A DNA stretch of 63,976 nucleotides, filler included. It is 4 parts of 4 records of this genome, joined end to end, with 100 filler letters (N's around TTAATTAATTAA, not from the genome) between each part and the next. Parts side by side here need not be neighbours in the genome. Positions count along the whole stretch, not along the records: positions 18,998 to 39,984 come from SRR20825006_454; 3 more parts are not named here. The stretch is one strand, 5' to 3'. Of the stretch, positions 14,211 to 40,084 are shown piece by piece; the stretch's first letter is position 1, and each line of letters begins with the position of its first letter. Under the pieces are notes generated by a model, which ran no database searches, had not been told where the DNA came from, and saw only the letters and a program-made list of their open reading frames with translations. A program made the translations under genes and the position numbers.

Positions 14211-14219
14211 GGATTCGCT

Positions 14220-15698: not shown

Positions 15699-15717
15699 GC
15701 TTATGGCACTCCCTGTC

Positions 15718-16575
15718 TTATTCGTTATCGGATTCGGACTCTGGCTCAGGTGGCAGGATTTCCATCTTCATCAGGTAAAGCCGGCGGTTATCGGCCCGCA
15801 GCACCGTGAACAGGAACGAACCGATCGTGATTTGTTCACCACGCTGGGGCAGATGGCCGAACTGATTCATGACATAACCGCCGATGGTGTCAAAATCTTC
15901 ATCACTCCACTGACAGTTAAAGTGCTCATTGAACTCATCAACCGGTGTCAGCGCCTTGACGGTATAGGTGTTCTCATTGCGCTGCAGGATCGGCGTGTCA
16001 TCATCAAAGTCATGTTCATCTTCAATTTCACCGACGATTTGCTCGAGCACATTCTCAATCGTGACAATACCGGCGACACCACCATATTCATCGACCACGA
16101 TGGCCATATGATTACGACGGGCACGGAATTCCCGCAGCAGCACATTCAGGCGTTTACTTTCCGGGATAAATACCGCCGGACGCAGCAACTCGCGCAGTTC
16201 AAATTTGAAATCACCGCTGCTGACCACCGCTGACAGCAAGTCTTTGGCCAGCAGAATGCCGATCACATCGTCACGGTCATCATCAATGACCGGGAAGCGT
16301 GAATGTGCGGTTTCGGTGACCAGTTTGAGGGTTTCTTCCGCTGGCGCGTCACGGGAGACCATGACCACCTGCGAACGCGGGATCATGATATCGCGTGCCT
16401 GCATTTGCGAAACACTGAGCGCGCCTTCGACGATAGACAGCGCTTCAGAGTCGAGGATATGACGCTCGGATGCGGAGCGTATCAGCTCGATCAGTTGTTC
16501 CTGATCCTGAGGTTCCAGGAACAGGTTGCTTAATTTACGTACCCAGGATTGACTACTCGGTCGACCTTCACTCAT
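15718..16575 (-). CDS. corC: CBS/CorC magnesium-cobalt efflux family protein
   Basis: [14 protein letters not shown] and FDTIGG motifs; ATG 16575 overlaps the ybeY stop. Confidence 0.93.
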
Positions 16576-17039
16576 GCGTGTTGTTCTCCCAGCCATTGAT
16601 AGGGATTGGCAATATTCATGGCCTGCAGAATGTTTATTTCCAAAGCTTCCATTTCTTCAGCTTCATCATCTTCAATATGATCATAGCCCAGCAGGTGCAG
16701 ACAGCCATGCACCACCATATGGGCCCAGTGGTCGGCGACCACTTTGGTCTGTTCTTCAGCTTCCCGCTCGACCACCGGCGCACAAATCACCAGATCGCCC
16801 AGCAAGCGGGGGCTAAGTTCAACCGGGGATTCAAAGGGAAAAGACAGTACATTGGTTGGTCCCTGTTTGCCGCGGTACTGGCTGTTTAGGTCTGCACTTT
16901 CGTCTTCATCAACGAGGCGGATGCTGAGTTCACAATCTTCGTCCAGATTCGCCAGTGCGGCCTCGGCCCATCGCTGAAACTGTGCCGGCTGTGGTGTACT
17001 ACCGTGGTAAACGCGCTGGAAATCCACCGTGACGGTCAT
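16572..17039 (-). CDS. ybeY: rRNA maturation endoribonuclease
   Basis: TNVLSFP and [15 protein letters not shown] motifs. Confidence 0.96.
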
Positions 17040-18013
17040 GAGGGTTTATTCGCCTTATCGTAGGCCATAATAATTTTCTGTACCAGCTGATGACGCACAA
17101 CGTCCTTGGCCTGGAAGAAGGTGAAGCCGATACCGTCGACATCTTTCAGCACCTCAATGGCATGCCTGAGACCCGATTTCTGGTTGCCGGGTAAATCGAT
17201 CTGGGTGATATCACCGGTGATAACAGCGGTAGAGTTATAGCCCATCCGCGTCAGGAACATTTTCATCTGCTCGATAGTGGTGTTCTGCGCTTCATCGAGA
17301 ATAATGAAGGATTCATTCAGCGTCCGGCCACGCATATAGGCCAGTGGCGCGACTTCGATCACATTGCGTTCCATCAGCTTGGCGACACGTTCAAAGCCCA
17401 GCATTTCATAGAGCGCATCAAATAGGGGACGTAAGTAAGGATCGACTTTCTGCGCCAGATCACCGGGCAGGAAGCCCAGTCGCTCCCCTGCTTCCACCGC
17501 GGGCCTGACCAGCACGATACGACGGGCAAAGTCACGCTCTAACGCTTCCACCGCACAGGCCACTGCCAGATAGGTTTTACCGGTACCGGCCGGCCCAACC
17601 CCGAAGTTGATGTCATGGGTCATAATCCGGCGCAAATAGGTCTGCTGATTCTCACCGCGCGCCTTAATCAGGCCGCGCTTGGTTTTGATCACGACCTCTT
17701 TATCCGGCGCCATGTCAGGCGTCGTATCCTCGCCGCCGCTGTTACGAATGGCCAGATGAATCTGTTCCGGCATCAGCACCTGCTGTGCTGTGTCGGCATA
17801 CAAATCATGAATAACAGTCTGCACCAGCAGCAGGACATCGGCCGGGCCGATAACCTGAAACTTGATCCCGCGATTATTAATCTCGACACCAAAGCCACGC
17901 TCGAGCATTCTGATATGCTCATCCATATGGCCGCATAGGTTGGCGAGACGGGGATTATCGGCGGGACTCAGTTCGAAGCTGACGCTATCGAGCGTATGAG
18001 TAGAGTTGGTCAC
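17036..18013 (-). CDS. phoH: PhoH family ATPase (YbeZ-like)
   Basis: [25 protein letters not shown] and DEAQN motifs. Confidence 0.94.
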
Positions 18014-18030
18014 AATGGAATTCCAAATGC

Positions 18031-18897
18031 TTATGCTGTCACGCTATCAGTTAGCAATTCACCGCGCAAGGAGTTGCTGTGAGCCTCATTGATACGGACA
18101 TCGACGAATTGTCCGATGAGGGAGGGATCGCCCGGAAAGTTGACCACGCGGTTGTTTTCAGTGCGGCCGGCCATATCGCCACCACCACGGTGTGCCTCGC
18201 GTTCAACCAGAATTTTCTGGGTGGTGCCGACCATCGAGCGGGCATGCATATCTTCCAGTTCACGCAGCCGGTCCTGCATGATCTGCAGCCGTTGTTTTTT
18301 CACATCCTCAGGCACTGAGTCATGGAATGCCGCGGCTGGGGTGCCTGGACGGGCACTGTAGATAAAGCTGAAGGAATGGTCGAACTCAACGTCGTTGATC
18401 AAATCCATGGTGGCCTGGAAGTCTGCTTCGGTTTCATTAGGAAAACCGATAATAAAGTCGCTCGATAAACCGATATCGGGACGAATCGCCTTAATCCGCT
18501 GAATTTTTTCCAGGTACTCTTTTGCTGTATGGCCACGTTTCATCATCGCCAGAATGCGATCACTACCTGACTGTACCGGTAGATGCAGATGATTCACCAG
18601 TTCCGGCACTTCGGCAAAAGCCTCAATCAAACTGTCGGAAAACTCGACCGGATGCGAAGTGGTAAAGCGGATCCGCTCAATACCCTCAATCGCGGCAACA
18701 TAGTGAATCAGCAGTGCCAGATCAGCGGTTTCCTCGCCTTCAATGATGCCCTGATAGGCATTCACATTCTGACCCAGCAAATTAACTTCACGCACACCCT
18801 GCGCCGCCAGTTGGCGGATTTCCCTCAGGATTGGTCCCACCGGACGACTGACTTCCTCACCCCGGGTATAGGGCACCACGCAGAAGGTGCAGTATTT
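18031..18897 (-). CDS. miaB: tRNA-i6A37 methylthiotransferase; 5' end truncated at the linker
   Basis: ...[13 protein letters not shown] (part of the radical SAM motif), [17 protein letters not shown] and a C-terminal TRAM domain. Confidence 0.96.
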
Positions 18898-18997
18898 NNN
18901 NNNNNNNNNNNNNNNNNNNNNNNNNNNNNNNNNNNNNNNNNTTAATTAATTAANNNNNNNNNNNNNNNNNNNNNNNNNNNNNNNNNNNNNNNNNNNN
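18898..18997. other. Artificial contig linker
   Basis: N44-TTAATTAATTAA-N44; base composition and apparent taxon change across it. Confidence 0.98.
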
Positions 18998-19245
18998 AAG
19001 AATAAAGAGAAGAGAATATAGATTTTATGTTCTTATTCTTTTGAAAATCTTTAGTTTACCAGAAACAATAAAGAATTGGACAATTTACACAATCACAACT
19101 TTGTTACTTTGAGTTAAAAGTTACAAGGAAAAAAACTGACTAAAGCCTACATTTTACTGAACACTCCCGACTTCGGACTTTTTTATTTCCACATTTTCAA
19201 ATCATCATATTGACACATTTACAAATTTGAACCTTTGCCTCTACA
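18998..19245. repeat. Mosaic of degenerate 7-8 nt periodic repeats
   Basis: AAGAATA/AAGAGAA/GAGAATA at 18998; CACATTTT-CAAATCAT-CATATTGA-CACATTTA-CAAATTTG at 19190-19229; 19155-19181 matches 39694-39720 at 25/27. Confidence 0.65.
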
Positions 19246-19255
19246 ACCAACGGAA

Positions 19256-21703
19256 CTAATTAATCTTATAACAGATTATCGAGTTTTTATCGCCTACGGT
19301 AACCATTTCTAACTTTTTATCATTATCTATATCTGCTAAATCGATGGCAGAATCTCCATAGACAGGGAAGTTTTCCACTTGTTTTGCATTACTGTCAAAT
19401 AAATAAACCTTATGTGTTTGTTTGTCGGTTACGGTAACATAAATTTTATCGTTGATATAAAAGATTTCCGGTTTAGTGTAGATTCCAAAATCTAGCGTAG
19501 CTTTATTGTTTTTAATGGTTAAAATATTTTCAGAAATAGTAGCTAACGTATTAGCTGTTGCATCAATTAAATGGTTTTCTTTCAGTCCTAATTCAATTTT
19601 ATTTAATCCACCTTTTTGGTCTACCTGAATTAAATCTCCAGAAGAATTGGTAGTTGTAAACTTCTTATCATATAAATAAACTTCATTTCCAGAAAAATCT
19701 ATGGATCCTCTAACACGAATCCTTAAGTCTCCTGTGCGGTGAAGAATATCTAATTTTCCATCATTTTCTTGGAGGATAATGTAATCTTTATTTCCAATAC
19801 GAATATGTTTCGGACTATTAATAATAGTGTTTTCGGTTTCATCTAAAATAAAACCAGTAACCACTTTTCCGTAGCGGTCGTACATTTCTATTTTTTTACC
19901 CATTACCACCACAAAACGATAATCCTTATTATTGCTATAGTCAAAAACAGCTAGCGGTTGTGTAATGGTGTTTTTAAAATCTATAGGAAATGGAGAAACC
20001 TCATTCCCATTTCTATCTAGAATCATCATTTTATCGGTTGTATTAAAGGCAAGTTGTAAGCGTCCATTTCTGTATAAATCAACCTGAGATATTTCGCCAA
20101 TAATTTTACCGCTCAATTCTTTTTTCCATAAAACTTTTCCGTCTGTGTCAATTAGATAAAGGTTGTTTTTTACATCTTGCACAACAATTTCTTTCTTTTT
20201 GGTATGATGATTTATTGCAAACTGCGGATTCGTAGCAATATCTGCATCTAAAGTAGTACTATATAACTGTGTAATAATATTAGAACCAACGGTAGAGGTG
20301 TTTGCTTTTTTTAATAACGCATGGAAGTGTGCAAAATCTCCTTCAGCAATATATTGAAAGGCAATAAATTTATAATCTTTAAAAGATTTTTTAGCTACCG
20401 ATGCTTTAAAGTCCTCACTTAAAATAGCGCTGTCATTTTTTAGTTTTTCAAGATTCCCAATAATTAAAACAGAAGATTCATCTGCCAATTCGCTACGTAA
20501 ATTTTTATAAGATGGAAGTTGAGAAAGCGTAGCACTATTTTGATAATTTGAAATAATATCTTCTAATAGGTTTATCGACTCAGCAAAAACATAAAAGTCG
20601 TCCACTTTGGCAACATAATTTGTACTAACCCCTTTTGTAATTTTCGAAAAGTGAGTCTTAATTAAGTCTGTTTTATTTATTTCCCAAATATTATAATCTC
20701 TGTATGAAGTTTCTTCTTTTACAAATTTCTGAAGACGGTCTTCAAAATCAATATTATCTGAAGTTGTAAAAGCAAATATTTTTGTTTGCTGAAACCCAAT
20801 TTCTATCATTTCTGTAGCCTTATGAAAAAGAGAATCGCTCATTTGCTTCATTTCAGACTCATTTCCATTAATTGCAGGGTATGCTATAAAATAGGTAGCA
20901 TTTATAGGAACAATTTCTGAAGCAAAGCTAGTAGAGGGAGTTGTATGTTTAAAAGCATTTAAAGTGTTGTTGAGGGAGTCATTCGCTACAGCAATTCCGT
21001 TTAACTTGATATAATCTTGAGCAATGCTGGTATCAAAAGAAGTCCAATCGTTAAATTCCGTGAGATTGTTAGCTAGGCTTTTGGAAAGCACTCTTTTAAA
21101 AAAGCTAGTTCCTTTTTTATGATTAATAAAAATATTAGCAGGAACATTGTTTTGAGCTACTTGATATAATTTAGAAAGCTTTGGATTAGCTTTTAGGTGG
21201 TCTGAGTTTCTAATGATGTTTTCAATAATTAGACGAGAAGAAGAACCTATAAAGTGATTCCCAACATTGGTACTAAATAATTTCTTTCCTCCAATACTCA
21301 GTATTTTGATGGAAGCCCCTTCATAAGTAATGGTTTCTATTTTACGATTAACTGTAGAATCAATACTGAATAAGTTATTATGATTTTTACTTATAAAGGT
21401 GTAGTTAAACTCTTCTTTTCCAATTTCATTAAAAGCAAGAATAGAAGTGCCTTTAGGATTGATATATTTTAAGGTAGTTACTAAGGAGGCAGAATTCTTA
21501 TAAGAAGTACTTTCTTGAAGCAACTTGAGAAAGTCGTTATTAATTATTTCACTTTTAAAAGCTTGATAGTCGTTTATTTTAATAACAGCGGTAGCATGTC
21601 TTGGAGTATATGAAACTAAATCTTCCGTTTGAACGGTTTCTTTTTTTGCACAAGAAAGGGTTATAAGTAGCGATAAAAATAGAATCTTAACAACAAACTT
21701 CAT
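19256..21703 (-). CDS. Large Flavobacteriaceae-type lipoprotein with a probable C-terminal beta-propeller region
   Basis: 815-aa ORF; lipobox ITLSC; repeats such as LYLIDTDGKVLWK and DIDNDKKLE. Confidence 0.7.
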   Translation of the reverse strand: MKFVVKILFLSLLITLSCAKKETVQTEDLVSYTPRHATAVIKINDYQAFKSEIINNDFLKLLQESTSYKNSASLVTTLKYINPKGTSILAFNEIGKEEFNYTFISKNHNNLFSIDSTVNRKIETITYEGASIKILSIGGKKLFSTNVGNHFIGSSSRLIIENIIRNSDHLKANPKLSKLYQVAQNNVPANIFINHKKGTSFFKRVLSKSLANNLTEFNDWTSFDTSIAQDYIKLNGIAVANDSLNNTLNAFKHTTPSTSFASEIVPINATYFIAYPAINGNESEMKQMSDSLFHKATEMIEIGFQQTKIFAFTTSDNIDFEDRLQKFVKEETSYRDYNIWEINKTDLIKTHFSKITKGVSTNYVAKVDDFYVFAESINLLEDIISNYQNSATLSQLPSYKNLRSELADESSVLIIGNLEKLKNDSAILSEDFKASVAKKSFKDYKFIAFQYIAEGDFAHFHALLKKANTSTVGSNIITQLYSTTLDADIATNPQFAINHHTKKKEIVVQDVKNNLYLIDTDGKVLWKKELSGKIIGEISQVDLYRNGRLQLAFNTTDKMMILDRNGNEVSPFPIDFKNTITQPLAVFDYSNNKDYRFVVVMGKKIEMYDRYGKVVTGFILDETENTIINSPKHIRIGNKDYIILQENDGKLDILHRTGDLRIRVRGSIDFSGNEVYLYDKKFTTTNSSGDLIQVDQKGGLNKIELGLKENHLIDATANTLATISENILTIKNNKATLDFGIYTKPEIFYINDKIYVTVTDKQTHKVYLFDSNAKQVENFPVYGDSAIDLADIDNDKKLEMVTVGDKNSIICYKIN

Positions 21704-21979
21704 GGATACTTTAATTTTTTAGCAAAAATAGAGTTTAACGATAAAAAAAGTACAAAAATATGTTAAGACTTGATTTTTTGGATTTATAAAAAAAACTTTT
21801 TCTGACTAATTTTTTTGATAATCAGATACTATTGTAAGTTTTTTCTTTTAATAATGAAGAAATATGAATAATTGTGTTGTTTAAAATCTTTTAAATACGT
21901 AATATTTTATATGCATTTTTTTGTTTTTATTAAGAAAAAATTATGATATTGTAAGATGCTAAATTCAAATTAATTAAAT

Positions 21980-24900
21980 ATGAGATCAAAGTTTACTTGG
22001 ATGCTAACGTTTTTTATGGCGTTAGTTTTACAGTTCTCCTATGCGCAGGAGAAGACAATTACAGGTATGGTGACAGACCAAGATGGTTTGCCGTTACCTG
22101 GAGCAAATGTAACTGTTAAGGGTACGTCCACAGGTACTCAAACAGATTTTGATGGAAATTATTCAATTTCTACAGCTGTGGGGAGTAAATTAGTTTATTC
22201 GTATGTTGGTCAGAAAACTGTTGAGAAAACAGTTGGAGCAGCAAGTACAATCAACGTAGTTTTAGAGCAAGATGCTCAGGCACTAGATGAGGTAGTTGTA
22301 TTAGGATATGCTACTTCTAGTAAAGCCGAATTAACAGGATCAACTGTTCAAGTTGATGCTGCAGATATTGAGCAAGTTCCAGTAGCCTCTGTAGATCAGG
22401 TGTTACAAGGTAAAGTTGCTGGTTTAGTAATGAATAACTCTTCTGGTACACCGGGTTCTACTGCAGATATCCGTATTAGAGGTGTTAGTTCTATTACAGC
22501 AGGGAATAATCCTTTATATGTTATTGATGGGGTTCCTGTAGCAAATACAGATAATGCTGATAATCAAAATTCTGGTTCTTCATTGTCTCCTTTAGCAAGT
22601 ATTAGTAGTAACAATATTGAAAGTATTACAGTGCTTAAAGATGCTTCTGCTACTGCTGCTTATGGTGCACGTGGTGCTAATGGGGTTATTGTAATTACTA
22701 CTAAAAAAGGTAGAGAAGGAAAAACAGCTATTAGTTTTAACACTTCATATGGTTTTTCTAATGATGCTGTAGATGGACCAGACGTATTAACAGGGGCAGA
22801 AAGAGAAATGTTATTTTATGAGTCTTTATACAACTCTTATGGGGTTAGTGATGGTTTTTCTAGAGATGGAGCGAAACAACATTATGAAGATAATTTAGGA
22901 TTATATGGTTCTGCATACTATGATTGGAATCAAGCAGGGAGACCTGAAGCAAATTGGGACGAAGTAGTAACAAATAAAGATGCAGCTTTTAGAGAGTATA
23001 ACCTTTCAGCTAGTGGAGGTAATGAAAATCATAATTTCTATGCTTCATTAGGATATTTTAATCAAGAAGCAACTGTTATTGGTTCTGAATTTGAAAGAAT
23101 TTCTGGACAGTTAAATTTTCAGAAATCATTAAATAGCAAATTAAAGTTTTCAACAAACAATAGTGCATCACATTCTTATCAAGATGGATTGTTAGAAACG
23201 AGTTCATATTTCTCTTCGCCTAGAACAGTTAAGTTTTTCGCTCCTCCAATAGAGCAACCATATGATGAAGATGGAGAAATCAACTTAAATACAACATTGC
23301 CTAACCCGTTATGGATTGCGCAAGAAGACATTGATGATTCTCAGTTAGTTAGAATTTTATCTAATAACTCATTAGAATGGGAAACACCTATAGAGAATTT
23401 AAGATTTACTACACGTACAAATATTGATTATCAAGTATATAACTATAAACGTTACCGTAATAGAATTGATGGTGATGGAGCTAGTACAAATGGCTATGGT
23501 TGGCAATCTCATAGTAGTAGAGCTAACTATGTATTCCAGAACTATTTAGATTATACTTGGAATGTGTCAGATGAGCATTCTATTGACTTTAAAGCATTAC
23601 AAGAGTATCAAAAAAATAGATATTATTATTTAGAGGCAGATGGAGATTCATTCTCTGATGATGGATTAACTAATTTAAATTCATCTGGTAATCCAACTAC
23701 TGCTAATTCTTATTTTACAGATTGGTCAATTGCTTCATACATGGGACTTCTACACTATAGTGGTTTTAATGGACGTTATGTTTTTGATGCTACCTATAGA
23801 AGAGAAGGAAACTCTCGTTTCGCCGATGATAATAGATGGGGGAACTTCTGGTCTGTTGGTGGAGCTTGGAACATTCATAGAGAAGCTTTTCTTGCAGATA
23901 GTAATGTAATAAGTAATTTAAAATTAAGAGCTTCTTATGGAGTCACTGGTAATGCTAACATTGACTTGAATTTGTATCAATCGTTATTAAATTACGATTC
24001 AGATTATGCAGGTACTGGAGCATCTTATCCTGGAACTTTTGGGAATCAGAATCTTTCTTGGGAGACCTCTCATACTTATGATATAGGCGCGGATTTCGGT
24101 TTCTTTAACAATAGAATTACAGCTAATGTTGGTTATTACTATAGAGAGTCAAAAGATTTATTGCTTGAGGTTCCACTTTCTTTGACAACCAGTTTTGAAG
24201 AGCAAACACAGAATGTTGGTAGAATGGAGAATAAAGGTTTAGAGTTAGAAGTAAACTTTGATATTATCCGTTCACAAAACTTCAATTTATCTCTTGGAGG
24301 TAATATGGCAACTAACGAGAATAAAGTGTTAGAAACGGCAACAGATGGAACAGGAGAGCCAATTAATATAACTACAGGAACACGTAGAGTTGAGGCTGGA
24401 CATCCAGTTTATGGATGGTATATGGTTTCTTACGCAGGAGTTAATCCAGATACTGGAGTTGACGAGTGGTATACAGATGGAGAAGGGAGTGCTACTACTA
24501 CAACTTGGTCTCAAGCTAATCAAGTATGGCAAGGAGAAAGTGCTTTACCAACGCTTACGGCAGGTTTGAATTTGCATATTGATGCTTATGGTTTTTTCTT
24601 AGATGCTAATGGATATTATGCAGGTGGACACAAAGTATTTGAAGATTGGACACGTTATACCAATGGTACAGATAGATTTTCATTAGATCTTTACAATGGA
24701 GTAGATGCATTGCTTGACAGATGGCAAGAACCAGGAGATATAGCTAGATTTCCTAAAATGGAGTATACTGCAAAACCATGGCAAAACAGTAATAAGTTTT
24801 TATATGAAGGAGATTTTATTCGTCTAAGAAATTTAACTTTTGGTTATGACTTTAATCAAAAAATTACTGAAACTATTGGAATAGATGGATTAAGGTTATT

Positions 24901-25039
24901 CTTAAGAGGAACTAATCTTTACACATGGGTGAAAGATGATCGTTTAAAATACGATCCAGAGACAGCAGCAGATGGATTTACAAGTTTGACAACACCACCT
25001 GTTAAATCATTCATTTTTGGATTAAACGTTAAATTTTAA
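21980..25039 (+). CDS. SusC/RagA family TonB-dependent transporter (copy 1)
   Basis: GTQTDFDG N-terminal domain, LDEVVV TonB box, PLYVIDGVP, LKDASATAAYGARGANGVIVITTKKG, terminal Phe. Confidence 0.95.
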   Translation: MRSKFTWMLTFFMALVLQFSYAQEKTITGMVTDQDGLPLPGANVTVKGTSTGTQTDFDGNYSISTAVGSKLVYSYVGQKTVEKTVGAASTINVVLEQDAQALDEVVVLGYATSSKAELTGSTVQVDAADIEQVPVASVDQVLQGKVAGLVMNNSSGTPGSTADIRIRGVSSITAGNNPLYVIDGVPVANTDNADNQNSGSSLSPLASISSNNIESITVLKDASATAAYGARGANGVIVITTKKGREGKTAISFNTSYGFSNDAVDGPDVLTGAEREMLFYESLYNSYGVSDGFSRDGAKQHYEDNLGLYGSAYYDWNQAGRPEANWDEVVTNKDAAFREYNLSASGGNENHNFYASLGYFNQEATVIGSEFERISGQLNFQKSLNSKLKFSTNNSASHSYQDGLLETSSYFSSPRTVKFFAPPIEQPYDEDGEINLNTTLPNPLWIAQEDIDDSQLVRILSNNSLEWETPIENLRFTTRTNIDYQVYNYKRYRNRIDGDGASTNGYGWQSHSSRANYVFQNYLDYTWNVSDEHSIDFKALQEYQKNRYYYLEADGDSFSDDGLTNLNSSGNPTTANSYFTDWSIASYMGLLHYSGFNGRYVFDATYRREGNSRFADDNRWGNFWSVGGAWNIHREAFLADSNVISNLKLRASYGVTGNANIDLNLYQSLLNYDSDYAGTGASYPGTFGNQNLSWETSHTYDIGADFGFFNNRITANVGYYYRESKDLLLEVPLSLTTSFEEQTQNVGRMENKGLELEVNFDIIRSQNFNLSLGGNMATNENKVLETATDGTGEPINITTGTRRVEAGHPVYGWYMVSYAGVNPDTGVDEWYTDGEGSATTTTWSQANQVWQGESALPTLTAGLNLHIDAYGFFLDANGYYAGGHKVFEDWTRYTNGTDRFSLDLYNGVDALLDRWQEPGDIARFPKMEYTAKPWQNSNKFLYEGDFIRLRNLTFGYDFNQKITETIGIDGLRLFLRGTNLYTWVKDDRLKYDPETAADGFTSLTTPPVKSFIFGLNVKF

Positions 25040-25045
25040 AAAATT

Positions 25046-26446
25046 ATGAAGAGAATTAATTTTATATATAAAGTAGCATTTGTAGCGGTATCCCTAGTTG
25101 GGTTAAACTCGTGTACTACAGATGACTTAGATCCTTCTACCGAACAGAATAAACCTGTAGAAGGGGGAATAACTACGGTAAGTAACCTTGAAGGAATTAT
25201 TAAAGGAGCTTATAGCGCAATGACCTCAAGTGAATATTATGGTAGAGACTATATCATAACAAATGAGGTAAGAACAGATAACTGTTTTGCTAATGGTAGT
25301 TCTGGGCGTTTTACTACAGAAGCTCAAATGGCATATAATGAGAACAATGATTATATCTGGGATAATGCTTATGATGTGATAGCATCTGCAAATATTGTTA
25401 TTAATCAGGATGTTAGTGTGCTTGAAGGGGATTTAGATTATGCAAAACACCTTCAAGGTCAAGCATATACCCTTAGAGCTTTAGCGCATTTCGATTTGTT
25501 GAAGTCATATGGTCAAATGCATGCTGGAGGAACACTTGGAGTTCCATATGTAACTGAATTTAAAGGAGAGGATTTATTCCCTAGTAGAAATACAATTGAA
25601 GAAAACAAAACAGCAATTGCAGCAGACTTTCAAGCTGGATTTGATATGATGAGCACTGCTTATAATGATTCTTCAAAAGAATTCTTAAATAAATATGCTG
25701 CAAAAGCTTTACAATCTAGATTTAATGTATATTTTGGAATGTGGCCAGAAGCTAAGACCGCGGCAGAAGCTGTAATTAACTCAAAGTTATATTCAGTTTT
25801 ATCTGCTAGTGATTTTGTAGGATCTTGGACACAAGATGGATCTTCAAATTCAATCTTTGAATTAGCTTATAGTGCAACAGATAACCAAGGAATTAATGGA
25901 CTTGCTTATATCTATAGATTAGGTCCAGCAGGTAGTTATGGAGATATTCAGGTTATTGATGAGGTTGCAACCCTTTTTGAAGATACAGACGTTAGAGGAC
26001 TCTTACCAGATGACGATGATGAGCCAACAGGAATTTTAGGATATGAAGATAATATGTTGAGAAACATAGGGAAGTATCCAGACAATAGAGGGTATGATAA
26101 TGTTCCTGTAATTCGTTATGAAGAAGTAATCCTTAACTATGCTGAGGCATTATTAGAAACAGGTGGAGATGCTTTAACGCAATTAAATATGATTCCTTCA
26201 AACAGAGGAGCTACTCCTTATACTTCTGCAACAAAGGAAAACATCCTTTTGGAGAGAAGAAAAGAATTGATGTTTGAAGGTTTCCGTTTTGATGATTTTG
26301 TACGAAATGGAATGGGAGTGGAGAAAGTTTCACCTCAACAAAATTTATTAAGTACAGTTCCTTATGGGGATTATAGATTAGCATACCCTATCACAAATGC
26401 AGAAACAAATGCTAACTCTAATATTGTTCAAAATGACCAATATTAA
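25046..26446 (+). CDS. RagB/SusD family lipoprotein (copy 1)
   Basis: LNSC lipobox, LRALAHFDL, IRYEEVILNYAEA and ERRKELMFEGFRFDD motifs. Confidence 0.93.
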   Translation: MKRINFIYKVAFVAVSLVGLNSCTTDDLDPSTEQNKPVEGGITTVSNLEGIIKGAYSAMTSSEYYGRDYIITNEVRTDNCFANGSSGRFTTEAQMAYNENNDYIWDNAYDVIASANIVINQDVSVLEGDLDYAKHLQGQAYTLRALAHFDLLKSYGQMHAGGTLGVPYVTEFKGEDLFPSRNTIEENKTAIAADFQAGFDMMSTAYNDSSKEFLNKYAAKALQSRFNVYFGMWPEAKTAAEAVINSKLYSVLSASDFVGSWTQDGSSNSIFELAYSATDNQGINGLAYIYRLGPAGSYGDIQVIDEVATLFEDTDVRGLLPDDDDEPTGILGYEDNMLRNIGKYPDNRGYDNVPVIRYEEVILNYAEALLETGGDALTQLNMIPSNRGATPYTSATKENILLERRKELMFEGFRFDDFVRNGMGVEKVSPQQNLLSTVPYGDYRLAYPITNAETNANSNIVQNDQY

Positions 26447-26483
26447 ATAAACTTTTTATTTGAATTAATTGCTAATTAATTCC

Positions 26484-26515
26484 AAACCCACCAGATTCAC
26501 TGGTGGGTTTTTTTT
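26484..26515 (+). terminator. Intrinsic terminator after SusD copy 1
   Basis: AAACCCACCAG-ATTCA-CTGGTGGGTTT followed by a T run. Confidence 0.85.
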
Positions 26516-26691
26516 ACTTCTACTTTTTTTCTCTTCCCACAGTTTTGTAATCATTACTTCTAGGTAGGTGTAGTCTGTCTTATAATTTAAGTAAGTTGAT
26601 ATGTGTTATATTCTATATTTTGTAGAATATTTGTCTCTTTTTAAGAAATATTTCACATATTAGTGCACGCTAAATTCAAATTAATTAAAAT

Positions 26692-29502
26692 ATGAGATCA
26701 AAATTTACTTGGATGCTAACGCTATTTATTGCGTTAGTTTTACAGTTTTCCTATGCGCAGGAAAAAACTATTACAGGGGTGGTATCAGACCAAGATGGTT
26801 TGCCATTGCCTGGAGCAAATGTTACCGTTAAAGGTACAACCAACGGTACTCAAACAGATTTTGATGGCTATTATTCTATCGATGTTTCTGTAGGTAAGGT
26901 AGTAGTGTATTCTTTTATTGGACAAAAAACAGTTGAAAAAACTGTTGGTTCACAAAATGTTTTAAACATAACTTTAGAGCAGGATGCACAAGCATTGGAT
27001 GAGGTAATAGTGACTGGACAAGGTGCAGGGATACAAAGAAAGAGATTGTCTACAACAGTAGATGTTGTTGATGCAGAGACTATAGATCGTTTGCCTTCAG
27101 GTCAAATAGATCAAATCTTGCAATCTAATACGCCTAGTGCACAAATCAGAATTAGTTCGGGTCAACCAGGAACAGCAGCGATCATAAGAACTAGAGGTCC
27201 TATTAGTGCCGCATCTTCTTCAACACCAGTTGTTATTGTAGATGGAATCAGGGTAGATAATTTAAATTCAAATGCAGAGTTAGGTTTGGACACTGGTGGA
27301 GCTAATGTATCTGCCTTAGCAGATATACCTGTTGAGTCAATTGAAAAAATTGAATATATTAAAGGTGGTGCGGCAACAACATTATATGGAGCTGATGCTG
27401 CTAATGGGGTTATCCAGATAATTACAAAAAAAGGAAAAGCAGGAAAGTCAACGTTTTATTATGAGAATAGATTAGGAGTGATTTCTGGAACAAAAGATTA
27501 TCTTAAATATGATAGAACAGGGGAAGCGTTATTTAGTGAAGGATTGTCAATTGAACATAAAGTAGGTGTTTATGGAGGTACTGAAAAATTCACTTATAAT
27601 TTTACAGGAAGCTTATATGAAGATGATTCATTTACAGATGTAAACCAACAAGTTAAACGGAATTTAGCATTTGGGTTTAGCGCCCAAATTACTGATAAGC
27701 TTAAGTATCAAGGTTCTTTTTCTTATGTAGGCTTTGATTCTACACTGGATTATAATGCTAATACGTCTTTTGGAAGATTTTCAAATGCTGAAGGAGGCTC
27801 ATATGGTAATCTAGATGAGCTTCCTGAAGAAGAGTGGCAGTCTCGTTTGGAGAATTTAGATGAAATAGCACCACTTGTTGATATAACTAGGGTTATAAAT
27901 AGGTTTACTGCATCCAACAAGTTTACTTATGATATTACAAGCAAATTTCAAACAAATGCAACATTTGGTGTAGATCAACGAAGCTCCGTAGATCAAGCTA
28001 TTCAAAGTAATGAATTACAAATAGTTTTGGGAAGTAAAAATCCAGGAACTACAGATCAAGCGGAAATGGATAGATCATTGAGGTCTTCATTTACAGTTAC
28101 TGCGGATTTAAACTTTACGCATAAAGCGAATACAGAAAATTTTTCTTTTGTCACTATATTGGGGACTCAGTTTTTTAGATCATCAGATAAACAAAATTTA
28201 ATATCAGGTACTGGAGGTGTTGATGGAACTTCATCTATTAATAATTTTGCGACAAAAACAGCCGAGGACTTTGTGTTGGAGAATGCTAATTACGGATTGT
28301 ATTTTTTAGAAAATATTGGTGTATATAATGTTGCTTATTTAGAGTTCGGAGGTAGATTGGATAAAAATACATCAGCTGGAAAAAATACGAATGCAATCTT
28401 TTTGCCAAAAATTGGGCTGACTTATAACATCTCAGATCATGATTTTTATAGAAATAGCAGTATATCAAATGCTATATCTAATATAAAATTAAGAGCAAAT
28501 TATGGAGAGGCAACTAATTTTGCTGAGCCATTTTCTCAAGACAAGACTTTTGCATTAGAATCGTTTTTAAACGTACCGGCATTTAGATTTGATAATCCGG
28601 GGAATCCTTACCTAAAGTCCGAAATTGTTAAGACATATGAATTTGGATTGGAATTAGGTTTTTTAGACAATAGGATTAATATTGGAGCAACAAGATATGT
28701 AGCAAAAACAGAAGATGCTTTATTTACTCCTGGAGCACCGCCTTCTTCAGGGCAACTCAATCAAATACAGAACATAGGGGAAATAGAAAATAAAGGGTGG
28801 GAATTTGCATTAAACACAGCAATTCTAAAAAATGAGAATCACAAGTTAGATTTAAATCTTTCCTATAATTACAACCGAAATAAAGTGGTAAGTTCTGGTG
28901 GAAGTGCACCCTTTAATGTAGGAGGTTTTACTGTTGTTGGTTCTTGGATCGAAGAAGGTCAAAGCTTGGGTTATTTAAGAGGAAATGCAGCATATGAACA
29001 ATCAGATGGGACTTTTGAATTTGTAGCAAATGAGAATTTAGGAGATACTTTTGCTCCTAGCTTTGGATCAATGAGTTTGAATTATAGTTATAAAAATTTC
29101 AACTTCTTTGCTACCGGAGATTATCAATTTGGAGGGAAGATTGTAGACTTAAGTTTTTTATTAAGAGTATTAGGAGGAGTTGATTATGAAGGGATTCCAG
29201 ATGCTTTAGCTGGACAAACTAGCCCTTTTAATTATGTCAATTATGTAACTTTTGATAATGATTTCTTGAAGATAAGAAACATTGGTGCTTCATACAGGTT
29301 TGGAGAGCTCTTAAAGCCATTTTCTGATATGATCTTTGGTCTTTCAGTAACGAATCCATTTAATTGGACAGCTGGAAATTTTGACCCTGAAGTAACAGGA
29401 TCTGGTATTGGAGATCAAAATGCATTTTCTAGTGGGGGATTTGCTTATGGAACTGAGTCAGCACCAAGAATTTTTATGACATCACTTAAATTTCAATTCT
29501 AA
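26692..29502 (+). CDS. SusC/RagA family TonB-dependent transporter (copy 2, divergent body)
   Basis: Same N-terminal domain as copy 1, IEKIEYIKGGAATTLYGADAANGVIQIITKKG, DPEV, terminal Phe. Confidence 0.93.
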   Translation: MRSKFTWMLTLFIALVLQFSYAQEKTITGVVSDQDGLPLPGANVTVKGTTNGTQTDFDGYYSIDVSVGKVVVYSFIGQKTVEKTVGSQNVLNITLEQDAQALDEVIVTGQGAGIQRKRLSTTVDVVDAETIDRLPSGQIDQILQSNTPSAQIRISSGQPGTAAIIRTRGPISAASSSTPVVIVDGIRVDNLNSNAELGLDTGGANVSALADIPVESIEKIEYIKGGAATTLYGADAANGVIQIITKKGKAGKSTFYYENRLGVISGTKDYLKYDRTGEALFSEGLSIEHKVGVYGGTEKFTYNFTGSLYEDDSFTDVNQQVKRNLAFGFSAQITDKLKYQGSFSYVGFDSTLDYNANTSFGRFSNAEGGSYGNLDELPEEEWQSRLENLDEIAPLVDITRVINRFTASNKFTYDITSKFQTNATFGVDQRSSVDQAIQSNELQIVLGSKNPGTTDQAEMDRSLRSSFTVTADLNFTHKANTENFSFVTILGTQFFRSSDKQNLISGTGGVDGTSSINNFATKTAEDFVLENANYGLYFLENIGVYNVAYLEFGGRLDKNTSAGKNTNAIFLPKIGLTYNISDHDFYRNSSISNAISNIKLRANYGEATNFAEPFSQDKTFALESFLNVPAFRFDNPGNPYLKSEIVKTYEFGLELGFLDNRINIGATRYVAKTEDALFTPGAPPSSGQLNQIQNIGEIENKGWEFALNTAILKNENHKLDLNLSYNYNRNKVVSSGGSAPFNVGGFTVVGSWIEEGQSLGYLRGNAAYEQSDGTFEFVANENLGDTFAPSFGSMSLNYSYKNFNFFATGDYQFGGKIVDLSFLLRVLGGVDYEGIPDALAGQTSPFNYVNYVTFDNDFLKIRNIGASYRFGELLKPFSDMIFGLSVTNPFNWTAGNFDPEVTGSGIGDQNAFSSGGFAYGTESAPRIFMTSLKFQF

Positions 29503-29513
29503 ATAAAGATAAA

Positions 29514-30938
29514 ATGAAAAAAACAATATATATAGTTTTATTAATAGCTTTTACTTTGAGTAGTTGCTCAGATAATTTTAATGAGGCAGTAGATTTTACA
29601 GATATAGAAAATCCTAACCTTTCAGAAACCTCTATTGTGGGACAGCCTAATTCCTCAAAGATTTGGTTGACAGGACTGGAGAGAGAAACATCTCTTGCTT
29701 ATAACGAGATTATAATATTAGCTGAATTAGGATCAGATAATTATATAAATACAGAGACTTTTTTCAATCAATTTCTAGATAATATAGATATTAGAGTGGA
29801 AGATCCTGATATTAGAGATACACAATATAGAATTGCCAGATTAAGAGAATCTGCACTATTTGGTTTAGAAACTGTCGGTCCTGCGGATTCTGAATATGCA
29901 ACAATAACAGAAGCTGAATATAATTTCTATGAAGGTTTATCATATATGCTGGCTGGGATGTACTTTTCAGCTTTACCTCAAGAAGAATTAGGGGTTGCTG
30001 TTAGCTCGGTAGAAAATTATAATTCTGCAATTAATTCTTTCAATAAGGCAATTACTATAAATCCAGACATCCCATATTACTATATGGCTATGGCTAGAGT
30101 ATATTATTATCTAGGTAATAAATCAGCTGCTGTTGATGCAGCAAAAAAAGCTCTAACTCTTGATAATAGTTTTATTAAAGCGGCAAAATATGACCAAGAT
30201 GACGGGCCTTCTAATACTATGGAAAGTGCATTATTTGCTAGATCTACTTTTGATGACTTACAACCTTTACCAACACTGGATTTTTTAGATCCTAAATATT
30301 CTTTTTTGTCTAGTGGAGAAGATCCAGCAGTTAATTTTTTAAAAGCAGAAGAAGCCTATCTTATTCTAGCTGAGGCGAATTTATCTACAGATATTGGAAT
30401 GGCGAAACAAAACTTAAAAAATTTGTTGATGCTAATAGCTACAAGAGAGGTGAGAACTTTTAGCGATACTATTGAGGATCGAACACAAGATGAACCTGGC
30501 TCTAGACCAGATACAACCTCAGTAGTTGTAAATGGGAGAGAGGGGCTTGTTCTTTATCGTAAAGGAGAGCAAATCAGTGTGCCATCTGTATCAGGAACTT
30601 CTCTAACTGATGAAGAAATCAATATGGCGAGCACAGAAGATGAATTACTTAAATTGATATACAGAACAAGGCAGGAAGTTTTTATAGCTGAAGGGATACG
30701 TTTTGTTGATATGGGTGTGAAATTGGTTATACATGAAAATGAAATTTTACAAAACCCGAATATTAATGCTGGAGACCCTTCAACAGTTCCAGTAATTCCG
30801 TCATTCATATCTAGTGTAGTTAGTGATTTGGATGCCATTACTTATGACCGAACATCGGGTATGGCAATGACAGCTATAGATTTAAATGATATATTGGTTC
30901 AAAACAAAACATCTTCAGAGGTAATTCCTTTTTATTAA
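29514..30938 (+). CDS. Atypical SusD-like/TPR lipoprotein (copy 2)
   Basis: LSSC lipobox, TPR-like helices, EEAYLILAEA and RQEVFIAEGIRFVD motifs; follows the SusC gene. Confidence 0.8.
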   Translation: MKKTIYIVLLIAFTLSSCSDNFNEAVDFTDIENPNLSETSIVGQPNSSKIWLTGLERETSLAYNEIIILAELGSDNYINTETFFNQFLDNIDIRVEDPDIRDTQYRIARLRESALFGLETVGPADSEYATITEAEYNFYEGLSYMLAGMYFSALPQEELGVAVSSVENYNSAINSFNKAITINPDIPYYYMAMARVYYYLGNKSAAVDAAKKALTLDNSFIKAAKYDQDDGPSNTMESALFARSTFDDLQPLPTLDFLDPKYSFLSSGEDPAVNFLKAEEAYLILAEANLSTDIGMAKQNLKNLLMLIATREVRTFSDTIEDRTQDEPGSRPDTTSVVVNGREGLVLYRKGEQISVPSVSGTSLTDEEINMASTEDELLKLIYRTRQEVFIAEGIRFVDMGVKLVIHENEILQNPNINAGDPSTVPVIPSFISSVVSDLDAITYDRTSGMAMTAIDLNDILVQNKTSSEVIPFY

Positions 30939-30982
30939 AATACTAAAAAGAGAATTAATTTTTTGTTCAATAAATTCAATAC

Positions 30983-31010
30983 AAAAACCCACCAACTTAG
31001 GTGGGTTTTT
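30983..31010. terminator. Bidirectional terminator between SusD copy 2 and rnhB
   Basis: AAAAACCCACC-AACTTA-GGTGGGTTTTT. Confidence 0.85.
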
Positions 31011-31607
31011 TTATAAATCTAATTTTAGTTGTTCTGGTAATAATCTAAAAGAAAGACGATGGTATTTTGTAGTACCATATTTTTTTATGGCTTCTCGGTG
31101 CTCTTTAGTTGGATAACCTTTATTTTTTTTCCAATTGTACATCGGGTATTCTTCATGGATTTCTTCCATATAAGCATCGCGGTAAGTTTTTGCAAGGATG
31201 GAAGCTGCAGCAATACTTAAATATTTACTATCGCCTTTAATAATACATTCATATGGAATATCTTTAAAAGGTTTAAATCTATTTCCGTCTACAATAATAT
31301 GTTCAATCTCACTATTTAGTTTATCTAGTGCATTATGCATAGCCAAAATAGATGCATTTAAAATATTTATTTCATCAATTTTAATAGGATAAATATGAGC
31401 AACGCCAAAACAAGTAGCTCCTTCTTCAATTATTGGTTTTAAGATGCTCCGTTTTAATGCTGTTAATTGTTTGGAGTCGTTAATAATTTTATTTTTAAAA
31501 TTTTCAGGAAGAATAACTGCAGCTGCCGTTACTGGTCCTGCAAGGCATCCACGTCCAGCTTCGTCAGTTCCAGCTTCTAAAGAGAATTCACTATACGATT
31601 TATACAT
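31011..31607 (-). CDS. rnhB: Ribonuclease HII
   Basis: [26 protein letters not shown] and KGYPT motifs. Confidence 0.96.
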
Positions 31608-31652
31608 TTTAATCGTTATTTAGGAGCCTATATATGGCTAATTCAAAAAAGT

Positions 31653-31744
31653 CAAAGTTAAAAATAGATACGGTATTTTGTCTTTTTTCAGTGTAAAAAT
31701 AATAAATCCACTTATATGGATTTCGTTCAAATAATATACCTTTG
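31653..31744. promoter_or_regulatory. Divergent Bacteroidota -7 promoter elements for rnhB and the porin gene
   Basis: TAACTTTG on the minus strand (31653-31660) and TACCTTTG on the plus strand (31737-31744) match the TAnnTTTG consensus. Confidence 0.55.
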
Positions 31745-31761
31745 TTTTTAAATCAAAATGG

Positions 31762-33741
31762 ATGAGATATTTTAATTTTTTGTTTTTCTTTTTAGTATTA
31801 TGTCTTGGAGTGGCAAATGCTCAAGTTGAACAAGAATCTAATGTTGTTAAGGATACTACAATTGTTCTTACTAAAAAGGAAAATCCAACTAAAAAGAAAG
31901 GTGATGATTTTCCTATTGAAGATTATAAAATAATCTCCTATGCAAGAGATACTACCACTTTTGATACAACCCTAACCATTTATAAGGAATACAAATATAA
32001 TTACCTTAGAAAAGACGATTTTGAGTTGCTCCCTTTTGCAAATGTTGGTCAGACATACAATATATTAGGGGCAGCTACCAAGGAGAAGAGTTTCTATCCA
32101 AGAATGGGAGAAGAAGCTAAGCATAATAATTATATGGAAGTTAGTGATATTGATTATTACCGAGTGCCAACTCCTACTACAGAGCTTTTTTATAAAACAG
32201 TAATGGAGCAAGGGCAAATTCTAGATGCATTAATTACCTTAAATACCTCTCCACAGCTAAATATGTCTATTGCCTATAAAGGGATGCGCTCTTTAGGGAA
32301 ATATCAACATATTTTATCAAGTACTGGAAATTTTAGATTTACAACTAATTATCAAACTAAAAGTGGACGTTATTTATTGAGAGGCCATTATACTTCTCAA
32401 GATATTTTAAATGAAGAAAATGGCGGACTGGGAGTTCCAGAGCAGTTTACTTCTGGAGACGATGAGTTTACAGATCGTTCTAGAATTGATGTAAGATTTG
32501 AAGATGCAGAAAACTTCTTATTAGGGAAAAGATATTTTTTGGACCATGAGTTTTTTCTGTTTAAAGAAAAAGATTCTTTAAGAAATTACGGACTTTCCGT
32601 TGGACATCAATTAAATTATGAAACTAAAACGTACGAATTTAGACAGACTACAGCTAATTCATATTTTGGGGAATCTTACCAAGCATCTAATTTAGAGGAT
32701 AGAGCTAAGCTAAAAACTTTTAACAATCAGCTTAATTTAAATTATAATAATAAAATAATAGGGCAAGCAACTTTCCTAGTAAACTATTATAAATACAATT
32801 ATTATTTTAATAGTTTGGTGGTAAACGACAGCGCTACAATTACAAATCAACTACGAGATAATGAAATCTCCATTGGAGGAAAATTTAAAAAGCAAATTGG
32901 AGGTTTTTCTTTAGGGGGAGATTTTACGCAGAATATTGTAGGAGACTTAGGTGGAACTACATTTAATGCTGAAATGAATTACCAAATTACCGATGATATT
33001 GATGTAGATGCTAGTTTACATGCTTCGTCTCGTATGCCAAACTTTAATTTTTTATTGTATCAAAGTGATTATAAAGATTATAATTGGCAAAATACTGACA
33101 CTTTTGAAAAGCAAAAATTAAGCACCATTCAAGGAACTCTTAATTCTAAAAAGTGGGGAAGTCTTAGTGTTGCTTATACTGTAAGAGATAAATATGCCTA
33201 TTTTGAAGAAAATTTAGATACTGGAGATTCAATTTCTTCTGTTTTAGATGATGTACAAAGGGTTACGCCAACTCAATTTGATGGTTCTATAAATTCAATA
33301 AAAGTAAAATTGAGTAACGATTTACATTTTTTGCGTAAATGGGGACTAGCAAATACAATTATGTATCAAAATGTGAGTCAGAGTGAAGACATTATTAATG
33401 TACCGCAAATTGTAACGAGAAACACACTTTATTACTCAAATCATCTTTTCAAGAAAGCTCTTTATTTACAGGTAGGAGTTACTGCCAAATATTTTAGTGA
33501 ATATTATATGAATTCATACAGTCCTGTTCTTGGGGAATTATTAATTCAGAATAGAGAAAAAATAGGAGGGTATCCAATGATGGATTTCTTTATAAATGCA
33601 AAAGTTCGTCGTACTCGTATTTATTTAAAAGCAGAACATTTTAACTCTCCCTTTGGAGATAATAATTATTATACAGCGCCAAATTATCCGTATCGAGATT
33701 TTATCGTTCGTTTTGGAGTGGTTTGGAATTTCTTTACATAA
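31762..33741 (+). CDS. Putative porin (Bacteroidota outer-membrane beta-barrel)
   Basis: Signal peptide, ENGG motif, aromatic-rich beta strands, ends RFGVVWNFFT. Confidence 0.8.
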   Translation: MRYFNFLFFFLVLCLGVANAQVEQESNVVKDTTIVLTKKENPTKKKGDDFPIEDYKIISYARDTTTFDTTLTIYKEYKYNYLRKDDFELLPFANVGQTYNILGAATKEKSFYPRMGEEAKHNNYMEVSDIDYYRVPTPTTELFYKTVMEQGQILDALITLNTSPQLNMSIAYKGMRSLGKYQHILSSTGNFRFTTNYQTKSGRYLLRGHYTSQDILNEENGGLGVPEQFTSGDDEFTDRSRIDVRFEDAENFLLGKRYFLDHEFFLFKEKDSLRNYGLSVGHQLNYETKTYEFRQTTANSYFGESYQASNLEDRAKLKTFNNQLNLNYNNKIIGQATFLVNYYKYNYYFNSLVVNDSATITNQLRDNEISIGGKFKKQIGGFSLGGDFTQNIVGDLGGTTFNAEMNYQITDDIDVDASLHASSRMPNFNFLLYQSDYKDYNWQNTDTFEKQKLSTIQGTLNSKKWGSLSVAYTVRDKYAYFEENLDTGDSISSVLDDVQRVTPTQFDGSINSIKVKLSNDLHFLRKWGLANTIMYQNVSQSEDIINVPQIVTRNTLYYSNHLFKKALYLQVGVTAKYFSEYYMNSYSPVLGELLIQNREKIGGYPMMDFFINAKVRRTRIYLKAEHFNSPFGDNNYYTAPNYPYRDFIVRFGVVWNFFT

Positions 33742-37236: not shown

Positions 37237-37254
37237 AGTTTTTCTAGATATAGT

Positions 37255-39984: not shown

Positions 39985-40084
39985 NNNNNNNNNNNNNNNN
40001 NNNNNNNNNNNNNNNNNNNNNNNNNNNNTTAATTAATTAANNNNNNNNNNNNNNNNNNNNNNNNNNNNNNNNNNNNNNNNNNNN
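39985..40084. other. Artificial contig linker
   Basis: N-run with TTAATTAATTAA, 100 bp. Confidence 0.98.

Follow-up and report, generated by a model that had tools for sequence, protein, structure and literature searches.

How do two neighboring transporter genes come to begin alike, and to be followed by the same terminator stem, when most of what lies between is divergent? The question is raised by two SusC/SusD-type modules that lie side by side between a lipoprotein gene and rnhB in a stretch of DNA of 63,976 nucleotides (the window). Bacteroidota take up nutrients mainly through SusC/SusD pairs, the repertoires of which vary greatly between strains. To our knowledge the acquisition of new SusCD specificities and their wiring into the host are poorly understood, and the role of the N-terminal extension (NTE) of SusC is unexplained. 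A sequence-only reading of the window had proposed that the conserved ends might serve as homology arms, between which different transporter bodies are exchanged as cassettes. The present analysis supports cassette exchange on each of the three counts on which it could have been refuted: the trees of the N-terminal domain and the barrel are incongruent, the content of the site is not constant, and the shared head and leader are not found throughout the genome. We consider it likely that in Galbibacter and Joostella the region bounded by the lipoprotein gene and rnhB is a chromosomal cassette site for SusC/SusD-type modules with a resident head. This view is based on the anatomy of the locus, a strain-level swap with its junctions, the variable content of the site, a scar in one genome, and the conflict between the trees.

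A shared head in front of unrelated bodies

Both susC genes are preceded by the block TTAAGAAA-N8-ATATT-N7-GCTAAATTCAAATTAATTAAA, as first described. Its 21-mer occurs exactly twice in the window when up to three mismatches are allowed, with 0.03 copies expected, and exact copies of the leader are confined to this locus both in five genomes of the genus and in a species-representative collection. In an alignment of 10 leaders conservation starts about 50 nt 5' of the ATG. The leader is probably a core promoter followed by a short A/U-rich 5' untranslated region.

The likeness extends through the signal peptide, NTE and TonB box, which we call the head. The first 107 residues are 79% identical, corresponding to about 84 to 85 positions, in agreement with an earlier hand count of about 84. 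In 30-nt windows the nucleotide identity of the two heads is 0.77–0.93 from −34 to +174 and 0.60–0.77 from +175 to +324, and past +324 the two genes are at the background level of 0.37–0.60. The sharp drop reported after the TonB box is real and falls directly after LDEV(V/I)V, and the bodies beyond it (plug and barrel) are 28% identical. The SusD partners had been called nearly unrelated, and we find no significant BLASTP match between them (E = 1.2) and a global identity of 23%.

Genome-wide comparisons of SusC proteins were made in G001, the nearest genome to the contig that carries the locus. Head 1 is matched there at 100 and 79% by the heads of the locus itself, then at 70, 69, 64, 61 and 59%, and at 57% or less by all others among 62 matches; heads of unlinked paralogues are 40–57% identical to it. 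Taken with the leader scans, this survey finds that a head of about 80% identity and the common leader are not general to the SusC genes of the genome. Homogenization of all heads within a genome was considered as an explanation and rejected, as only linked or subfamily heads are alike in G001. Tandem SusCD pairs are found elsewhere, three in G001 (L026, L027 and L028) and one in a genome of another genus, G067 (L041), and their leaders, signal peptides and NTEs are again specific to the locus; the heads of these four pairs are 52–74% identical and their bodies 25–37%. For three tandem pairs at the present site the heads are 73–88% identical. Shared, locus-specific heads over unrelated bodies are thus seen in all seven tandem pairs compared (heads 52–88%, bodies 25–37%). 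We found no paper on concerted evolution of SusC, on mosaicism of head and body, or on locus-specific heads in tandem pairs, in a literature search whose coverage stopped short of subscription journals.

Within the coding sequence for the signal peptide, RNAalifold predicts a stem-loop of 9 bp at +24 to +47 of each susC, as RNA or DNA. Pairing is kept in 96.7% of cells over 10 locus sequences. In an alignment of 21 sequences, made up of the locus sequences, six paralogues and five genes of other genera, it is kept in 83.6% of cells, against 22–55% when the partner is slid. Double-sided changes occur at seven of the nine pairs in this alignment, amounting to 17 cells where shuffled alignments give 5.8 ± 1.9 and none of 500 shuffles reaches 17, a control that overstates the support because the aligned sequences are related. 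The structure is nevertheless credible, given the outcome with slid partners and the fact that the paralogues have stems of different sequence, and it is a candidate source of nucleotide-level constraint in the head.

At the other end, both modules carry the terminator stem AAACCCACC...GGTGGGTTT that had been noted from the sequence. The 9-mer of the stem is present in five copies in the window, compared with 0.38 expected, and the loops are unlike, with 9 nt in the first terminator (T1) and 6 nt in the second (T2).

Variation of the site and the histories of its parts

The closest comparison is between the window and G001. These are 99.3% identical over 18998–27014 and 99.7% identical over 30968–33000, and the stretch between cannot be aligned. 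It comprises 3.95 kb of module 2 here and 4.2 kb in G001, where it encodes a SusC of 1070 amino acids and a SusD of 438 amino acids. The SusC bodies are 29% identical and the SusD proteins 21%. The head of module 2, by contrast, differs at just 2 of 323 nucleotides (26786 and 26826) and at one amino acid, so that these two alleles combine a near-identical 5' segment with a SusD that is divergent throughout, as in a ragAB-like locus. The left junction of the swap lies at the TonB-box codons (DEVIVT, 27014) and the right junction 17 nt 5' of the terminator stem (30968), while module 1, directly upstream, is unaffected. Single-nucleotide differences occur about once per 200–300 nt in the flanks and cluster at the junctions, with six in 26602–26826 and six in 30999–31053. 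Since the two heads are only 79% alike, head 2 was not restored from head 1 after replacement of the whole gene, so that the crossover has to be placed where head 2 itself ends. The body type found in module 2 of G001 (type 4) has no relative at the site in the other genomes of the genus. Its nearest relative among 151 family genomes sampled belongs to another genus, with 57% identity in SusD and 64% in the SusC body.

It had been suggested that cassette number and identity be compared across related genomes. Among 10 Galbibacter and Joostella genomes (G001–G010) the site holds zero, one or two modules. It is empty in G003, G008 and G010, with 380–530 nt and no head remnant detectable by blastn. 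In G005 there is a scar, consisting of the leader, the first 40 codons of a head, about 30 nt and a degenerate terminator, followed by rnhB (L015, around 3017–3250); 143 nt of it match at 80% (E = 9e-33). Single modules are present in G009 (type 1, orthologous to module 1 and 93% identical in amino acid sequence, also over the body), in G004 (type 2, orthologous to module 2, with a body 78% identical) and in G006 (type 3, together with an FG-GAP/ASPIC gene). Two modules are found in G001 (types 1 and 4), in G007 (two further types, one of them followed by an extra lipoprotein gene of 280 amino acids) and in G002, where one SusC (G002_C1) is 49% identical to type 1 and an IS1182 transposase gene lies within the site, as it does in no other of these genomes. 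If G002_C1 is assigned to type 1, the body types number six. Each of the 11 susC genes at the site starts with the same leader and head. The heads are 64–93% identical across species and 99–100% identical between the window and G001, and bodies outside the groups of orthologues are 25–34% identical.

The tails can be followed in the same genomes. In G009, which has one terminator, the sequence before it aligns with the upstream flank of T1, and the sequence after it with the downstream flank of T2 and the end of rnhB; the type-3 module of G006 ends in a similar tail of about 45 nt. This fits the idea that one ancestral tail was duplicated when a second module was added. Outside the genus, G080 has a type-2 module on the opposite side of rnhB, with the lipoprotein gene directly adjoining rnhB (L040). 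The association of type-2 modules with rnhB thus predates the genus.

In one metagenome contig (L042/L043) the locus is arranged as in the window, at 98.4% identity. Within the body of susC1 (22500–25000) it shows patches diverged by about 10%, where most of the codon differences are synonymous (100, against 29 non-synonymous). The patches form a mosaic and were imported by homologous recombination, which is active at the locus. A scan of metagenomes with the leader pattern gave no new allele, returning L042 and L043, which are overlapping loci of one contig, and an unrelated contig of 1.5 kb. Eighteen public runs from 13 studies contain half or more of the words sampled from 26400–31100, and in two of four metagenome runs there are contigs that span susD1, module 2 and rnhB, arranged as they are here. 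The stretch of module 2 is present at 100% of sampled words in small runs labeled as five organisms (A to E) and in several marine metagenomes. The run of organism A is possibly the source sample, and the Galbibacter in question, a marine bacterium, may often accompany or contaminate other cultures.

Head and body have separate histories. In a nucleotide tree of heads, which also contains six paralogues from three other loci of G001, the 11 heads of the locus form one clade (97/96), and the two heads of one genome are sisters in G002 (99/97) and in G007 (92/89). The branching order is that of the flanking lipoprotein tree: (G003, G008, G010), then G007 and G005, then (G004, G006), then (G009, (G002, (window, G001))). 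In the body trees (a quick posterior mean site frequency tree and an LG+G4 tree) the bodies of the locus interleave with paralogues of other loci, and type 3 is sister to a gene elsewhere in G001. The approximately unbiased (AU) test rejects a single clade of all 11 locus bodies (p = 8e-77, log-likelihood difference 615) and a pairing of the G002 bodies (p = 1e-10). Conversely, it rejects the first and second body-based clades for the heads (p = 0.001 and p = 0.002).

Orthologues in other genera show the opposite of what is seen between neighbors at the site. Type-2 orthologues in three other genera are 68–69% identical in the body and 49–59% in the head, the figures for a type-4 orthologue in another genus are 64% for the body and 50% for the head, and cross-genus orthologues overall span 64–71% for bodies and 49–59% for heads. 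Under vertical descent the head therefore changes faster than the body, and the heads at the site are not alike merely because they evolve slowly. The synonymous divergence (dS) of heads within a genome is 0.15 in G002, 0.52 in the window and 0.78 in G007; it is 1.27–1.34 for heads of orthologous bodies in different species and about 1.3–1.4 for paralogous bodies (NG86, head codons 1–55).

Proposed exchange at the TonB box and its rivals

The reading that we consider likely is as follows. The resident head, made up of the leader of about 50 nt, the signal peptide with its stem-loop, and the NTE with the TonB box, passes down with the locus and follows the species tree. Everything past the TonB box, namely plug, barrel and lid lipoprotein, is exchangeable and comes in at least six unrelated types. 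Recombination replaces, adds or deletes bodies; on the left it ends in the head or at the end of it, and on the right either near the terminator, within the short tail, or in the flank at rnhB. The left arm would thus be the head, about 370 nt, and the right arm the tail or the rnhB flank, and tandem heads within a genome would be kept alike by gene conversion. We infer general homologous recombination of the RecA type, acting on head and tail, as the mechanism; it is the best supported because the modules are complete direct repeats and no recombinase was found nearby. Keeping the head would presumably preserve local expression, together with the compatibility of NTE and TonB box with the host. 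The original proposal of homology arms is thus supported, with caveats: the junctions and the phylogeny fit it, but the arms are deduced rather than seen at work as a process, and the tail is weak.

Several points weigh against this reading. No recombination event has been observed directly, and contigs of four metagenome runs give no evidence of ongoing or programmed switching. A search for head-to-head junctions, which the sequence-only reading had put forward as a check, yielded no credible joint in the contigs of the four runs, although contigs drop rare variants. The joints listed in these runs (X6, X7, X11 and X14) have sides of 21–27 nt and the loose ends lie in the conserved NTE region, and both probably stem from other SusC genes. 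Comparisons within the species number two, with G001 and with one metagenome contig. For the heads, the AU test rejects the third and fourth body-based clades only marginally (p = 0.048 each) and does not reject the fifth (p = 0.16), and the groups were chosen after the trees had been seen. The dS values are rough, being taken from only 55 codons, and some pairs of heads from different species have a dS of 0.39–0.51 where the flanking genes are saturated (dS at least 1.5). Some nucleotide constraint, from the stem-loop or the translation start, therefore probably adds to conversion. The tail of a module is short, a 9-nt stem with about 20–40 nt, and it is not common to all species. Four of 11 tails at the site have other stems (after G002_D1, G002_D2, G004_D1 and G007_D2), and G007_D1 has no terminator, with the next gene directly following. 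As a boundary the tail is for this reason weaker than the head and less general, and the true right arm may be the flank at rnhB.

It is possible, though we hold it the poorer explanation, that the bodies were not brought in but left over. An ancestral, longer tandem array with one type of head could have been pruned by deletions between heads and between tails, with reciprocal deletions in a recent three-module ancestor giving rise to the window (types 1 and 2) and G001 (types 1 and 4). Loss of the DNA between two direct-repeat heads would join the resident head to the next body, and the scar in G005 shows that head-to-tail deletions occur. Moreover types 2 and 3 are patchy in their distribution, yet their bodies have non-synonymous divergences (pN) of 0.15 and 0.13 where the lipoprotein has 0.11–0.20, about the divergence of the flank. 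However, three or more modules are present in none of the 10 genus genomes, the window and the one metagenome contig, and type 4 has no relative at the site in the rest of the genus, the nearest one found lying in another genus. Import with grafting and differential loss have the same head and tail boundaries and the same recombination, and differ only in the source of the bodies. Ordinary paralogy, in which purifying selection holds the NTE and TonB box on account of their contact with a common periplasmic partner, and the strain differences arise by whole-region replacement through flanking genes, seems to us improbable. The NTE is generally better kept than the barrel, as in the unlinked genes of G001, where heads of 40–57% identity go with bodies of about 27%, and the authors of a study of Porphyromonas gingivalis treat the conserved 5' end of ragA as functionally essential and not as a recombination boundary, in the part of their paper available to us (PMC11817032). 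But ordinary paralogy leaves unexplained why the left junction of the swap lies inside susC2 and not in a flanking gene, with module 1 unaffected; why the non-coding leader and synonymous sites are also common to both modules; why cross-genus orthologues have heads less conserved than their bodies; and why the head tree follows species and not body type.

A programmed shufflon would place alternative bodies behind one 5' end by the action of a dedicated enzyme. As far as the accessible parts of two reports go, susC shufflons of Bacteroides have their recombination site inside the 5' coding ends and an adjacent tyrosine recombinase (10.1101/521070; 10.1101/2025.06.24.661248); these include BT1040/BT1042/BT1046 with BT1041 and a proposed BT2260/2262/2268 set in B. 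thetaiotaomicron, as well as examples in B. fragilis. They require the adjacent recombinase, reversible rearrangement within a clone, and incomplete copies that lack a promoter. The logic of one expressed 5' end with alternative bodies (10.1101/521070, same proviso) is similar here, and the conserved 9-bp inverted repeat in every head might in principle be a site for a recombinase encoded elsewhere that swaps susC 5' ends at high frequency. Yet the modules are in direct and not inverted orientation, both susC genes are full-length with a leader of their own, and the variation is found only between strains and species. The arrangement appears to be stable, being bridged by contigs of two independent metagenome runs and by the one metagenome contig. 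As the sequence-only reading had stated, no recombinase is encoded nearby: neither the open reading frames of the 21-kb contig nor three upstream reading frames of G001 (at least 120 amino acids, in an 18-kb stretch) contain a recombinase, integrase or transposase domain. We regard a shufflon as very improbable indeed.

The closest precedent is the rag locus of P. gingivalis (rag-1 to rag-4), of which the present site is a variant. According to the accessible part of the published account, the first 450 nt of ragA (150 amino acids) are nearly identical in the four ragAB types, and the rest of the gene and the whole of ragB differ (PMC11817032). In both cases one site holds alternative SusC/SusD alleles with a common signal peptide, NTE and TonB box. 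The bodies here are however more different, 25–34% identical in amino acid sequence compared with 58–64% between RagA types, with SusD partners of different Pfam families. Unlike rag, the site has zero to two tandem modules, includes empty and scar states, extends over several species, and has a head that follows the species tree. Tandem susC/susD pairs in polysaccharide utilization loci (PULs) of Flavobacteriia and Bacteroides also stand side by side under apparently common control, but the modules here have no adjoining gene for a carbohydrate-active enzyme or regulator.

We conclude that the TonB box is the seam between resident and exchangeable parts, for which the evidence is unusually clear, and that no new kind of machinery is implied. 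The locus is a clean natural example of a break exactly at this point, points to a rule by which foreign barrels become functional, and makes the role of the NTE domain approachable by genetics. In practical terms, SusCD specificities might be moved by retaining the host head and exchanging what follows the TonB box. Genes annotated as paralogues can be mosaics whose parts have separate histories, which matters for phylogenies of TonB-dependent transporters. A wider proposal, which we offer tentatively and think more doubtful than the cassette site itself, is that the head, from the promoter, 5' untranslated region and mRNA stem-loop to the signal peptide, NTE and TonB box, is a self-contained, host-resident adaptor onto which a horizontally acquired barrel and lid must be grafted for expression and energizing. 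If that were true, SusCD evolution in Bacteroidota would be modular in general, with barrels and lids traveling as cassettes and heads staying with genome and locus, homogenized between neighbors, and the NTE would be a host- or locus-specific coupling element.

Gene families and genomic setting

The features of the locus and the contigs of the window are collected in the table. Both susC products have a SusC-type architecture, with PF13715 at residues 27–107, LDEV(V/I)V at 100–106 and Plug from about 115, an order that fits the published layout of the SusC N-terminus from which the NTE definition is taken, as given in the available part of the source (PMC7782687). The product of susC1 scores 773.4 bits with TIGR04056, above the curated cut-off of 368.25, as does the module-2 SusC of G001 with 603 bits. 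That of susC2 reaches 357.6 bits, under the cut-off, and 32.7 with the TIGR04057 signature, under 46.2, despite which it retains the NTE (PF13715), Plug and barrel domains. It is best named a divergent SusC-like transporter.

SusD1 matches the SusD families PF14322 (70 bits) and PF07980 (60 bits), and other lids with such matches are the SusD of module 2 in G001 (PF12771, 55 bits) and the partners in G007 and G002. The module-2 partner in the window matches families of tetratricopeptide repeats (TPR) only in Pfam, and a sequence search of the PDB gives TPR proteins only. Its neighbors in an Atlas feature search include a cluster named 'SusD family protein' (0.98), which is a lead only, and an AlphaFold2 model made from an alignment of five sequences has a predicted local distance difference test score (pLDDT) of 49. 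The position of the gene and its lipoprotein-type N-terminus are as expected of a lid, and it is probably a very divergent SusD-like lid.

Features of the locus and contigs of the window (positions in the window)
Feature	Position	Strand	Basis or remark
DUF3352-type lipoprotein gene, 815 aa, left anchor	19256..21703	-	Pfam PF11832; adjoins site in 10/10 genus genomes
Leader 1	21930..21979	+	about 50 nt before ATG of susC1
susC1, 1019 aa	21980-25039	+	
Head 1: signal peptide, NTE (CarbopepD_reg_2), TonB box LDEVVV	21980..22300	+	Pfam PF13715
Predicted stem-loop in signal-peptide coding part of susC1, 9 bp	22003..22026	+	RNAalifold, pair counts
Body 1 (type 1): plug and 22-strand-type barrel of susC1	22301..25039	+	Pfam Plug, TonB_dep_Rec_b-barrel
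susD1, 466 aa	25046..26446	+	Pfam SusD-like_3, SusD_RagB
Terminator T1, tail of module 1	26484..26510	+	
Leader 2	26641..26691	+	before ATG of susC2
susC2, 936 aa	26692-29502	+	
Head 2, ending at left swap junction inside DEVIVT codons	26692..27014	+	matches G001 up to 27014
Predicted stem-loop in signal-peptide coding part of susC2	26715..26738	+	
Body 2 (type 2): divergent TonB-dependent barrel	27015..29502	+	
Module-2 partner lipoprotein, 474 aa, TPR-containing	29514..30938	+	Pfam TPR only
Module-2 tail: right swap junction (30968) and bidirectional terminator T2 (30985-31008)	30968..31008	+	
rnhB (RNase HII), right anchor	31011..31607	-	Pfam PF01351; adjoins site in 10/10 genus genomes
Contig A	1-18897		about 53% GC over most of length; dips to 47% over 2-8 kb
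Contig B	18998-39984		about 32% GC; 99% identical to nearest genome G001
Contig C	40085-57478		about 32% GC; only 65-74% identical to G001
Contig D	57579-63976		about 55% GC

The modules have as neighbors the lipoprotein gene, rnhB, a Porin_10 gene, an aminotransferase gene and genes of ergothioneine type, which is not the composition of a canonical PUL. The sole carbohydrate-related match near the locus is a CBM48-like open reading frame of 98 amino acids, 4 kb away. A scan of 18800–32000 with Rfam gave nothing but sub-threshold, terminator-like chance matches. A sigma-70 promoter scan gave 62 sites where shuffled sequences give 62.1, with a consensus that is uninformative for Bacteroidota.

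Four contigs make up the window, with three runs of N carrying the linker ttaattaattaa between them (18898–18997, 39985–40084 and 57479–57578), and the cassette locus is entirely within contig B. The locus pattern was matched in named genome records only for Galbibacter and Joostella (G. orientalis DSM 19592, G. mesophilus Mok-17, Galbibacter sp. EGI 63066, Joostella atrarenae M1-2 and Joostella sp. CR20), and contig B is on this ground assigned to a Galbibacter orientalis-like strain. Contig C is also from Flavobacteriaceae, and its identity to G001 places it in a different genus from contig B. Contig A carries pilMNOPQ-aroK-aroB, mrcA and lnt-corC-ybeY-phoH-miaB', a gene order that we take to be typical of Gammaproteobacteria. 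Contigs A and D are mostly of about 53–57% GC, compared with about 32% in contigs B and C, which come from different genera; the assembly is therefore a mixed bin or a co-culture.

The start of contig B (18998–19123) falls inside a dispersed intergenic repeat family with 36 matches in G001. Upstream of the lipoprotein gene in G001 the same repeat forms a tandem array with a 205-nt unit in 2.6 copies (L009, 2129–2657), and a tandem repeat probably explains the break of the contig at this point. Toward the other end of contig B, at 36277–38418, a gene for an EgtD-like histidine methyltransferase (PF10017) adjoins one for an EgtB-like FGE-sulfatase/DinB_2 protein, which suggests an ergothioneine-type pathway.

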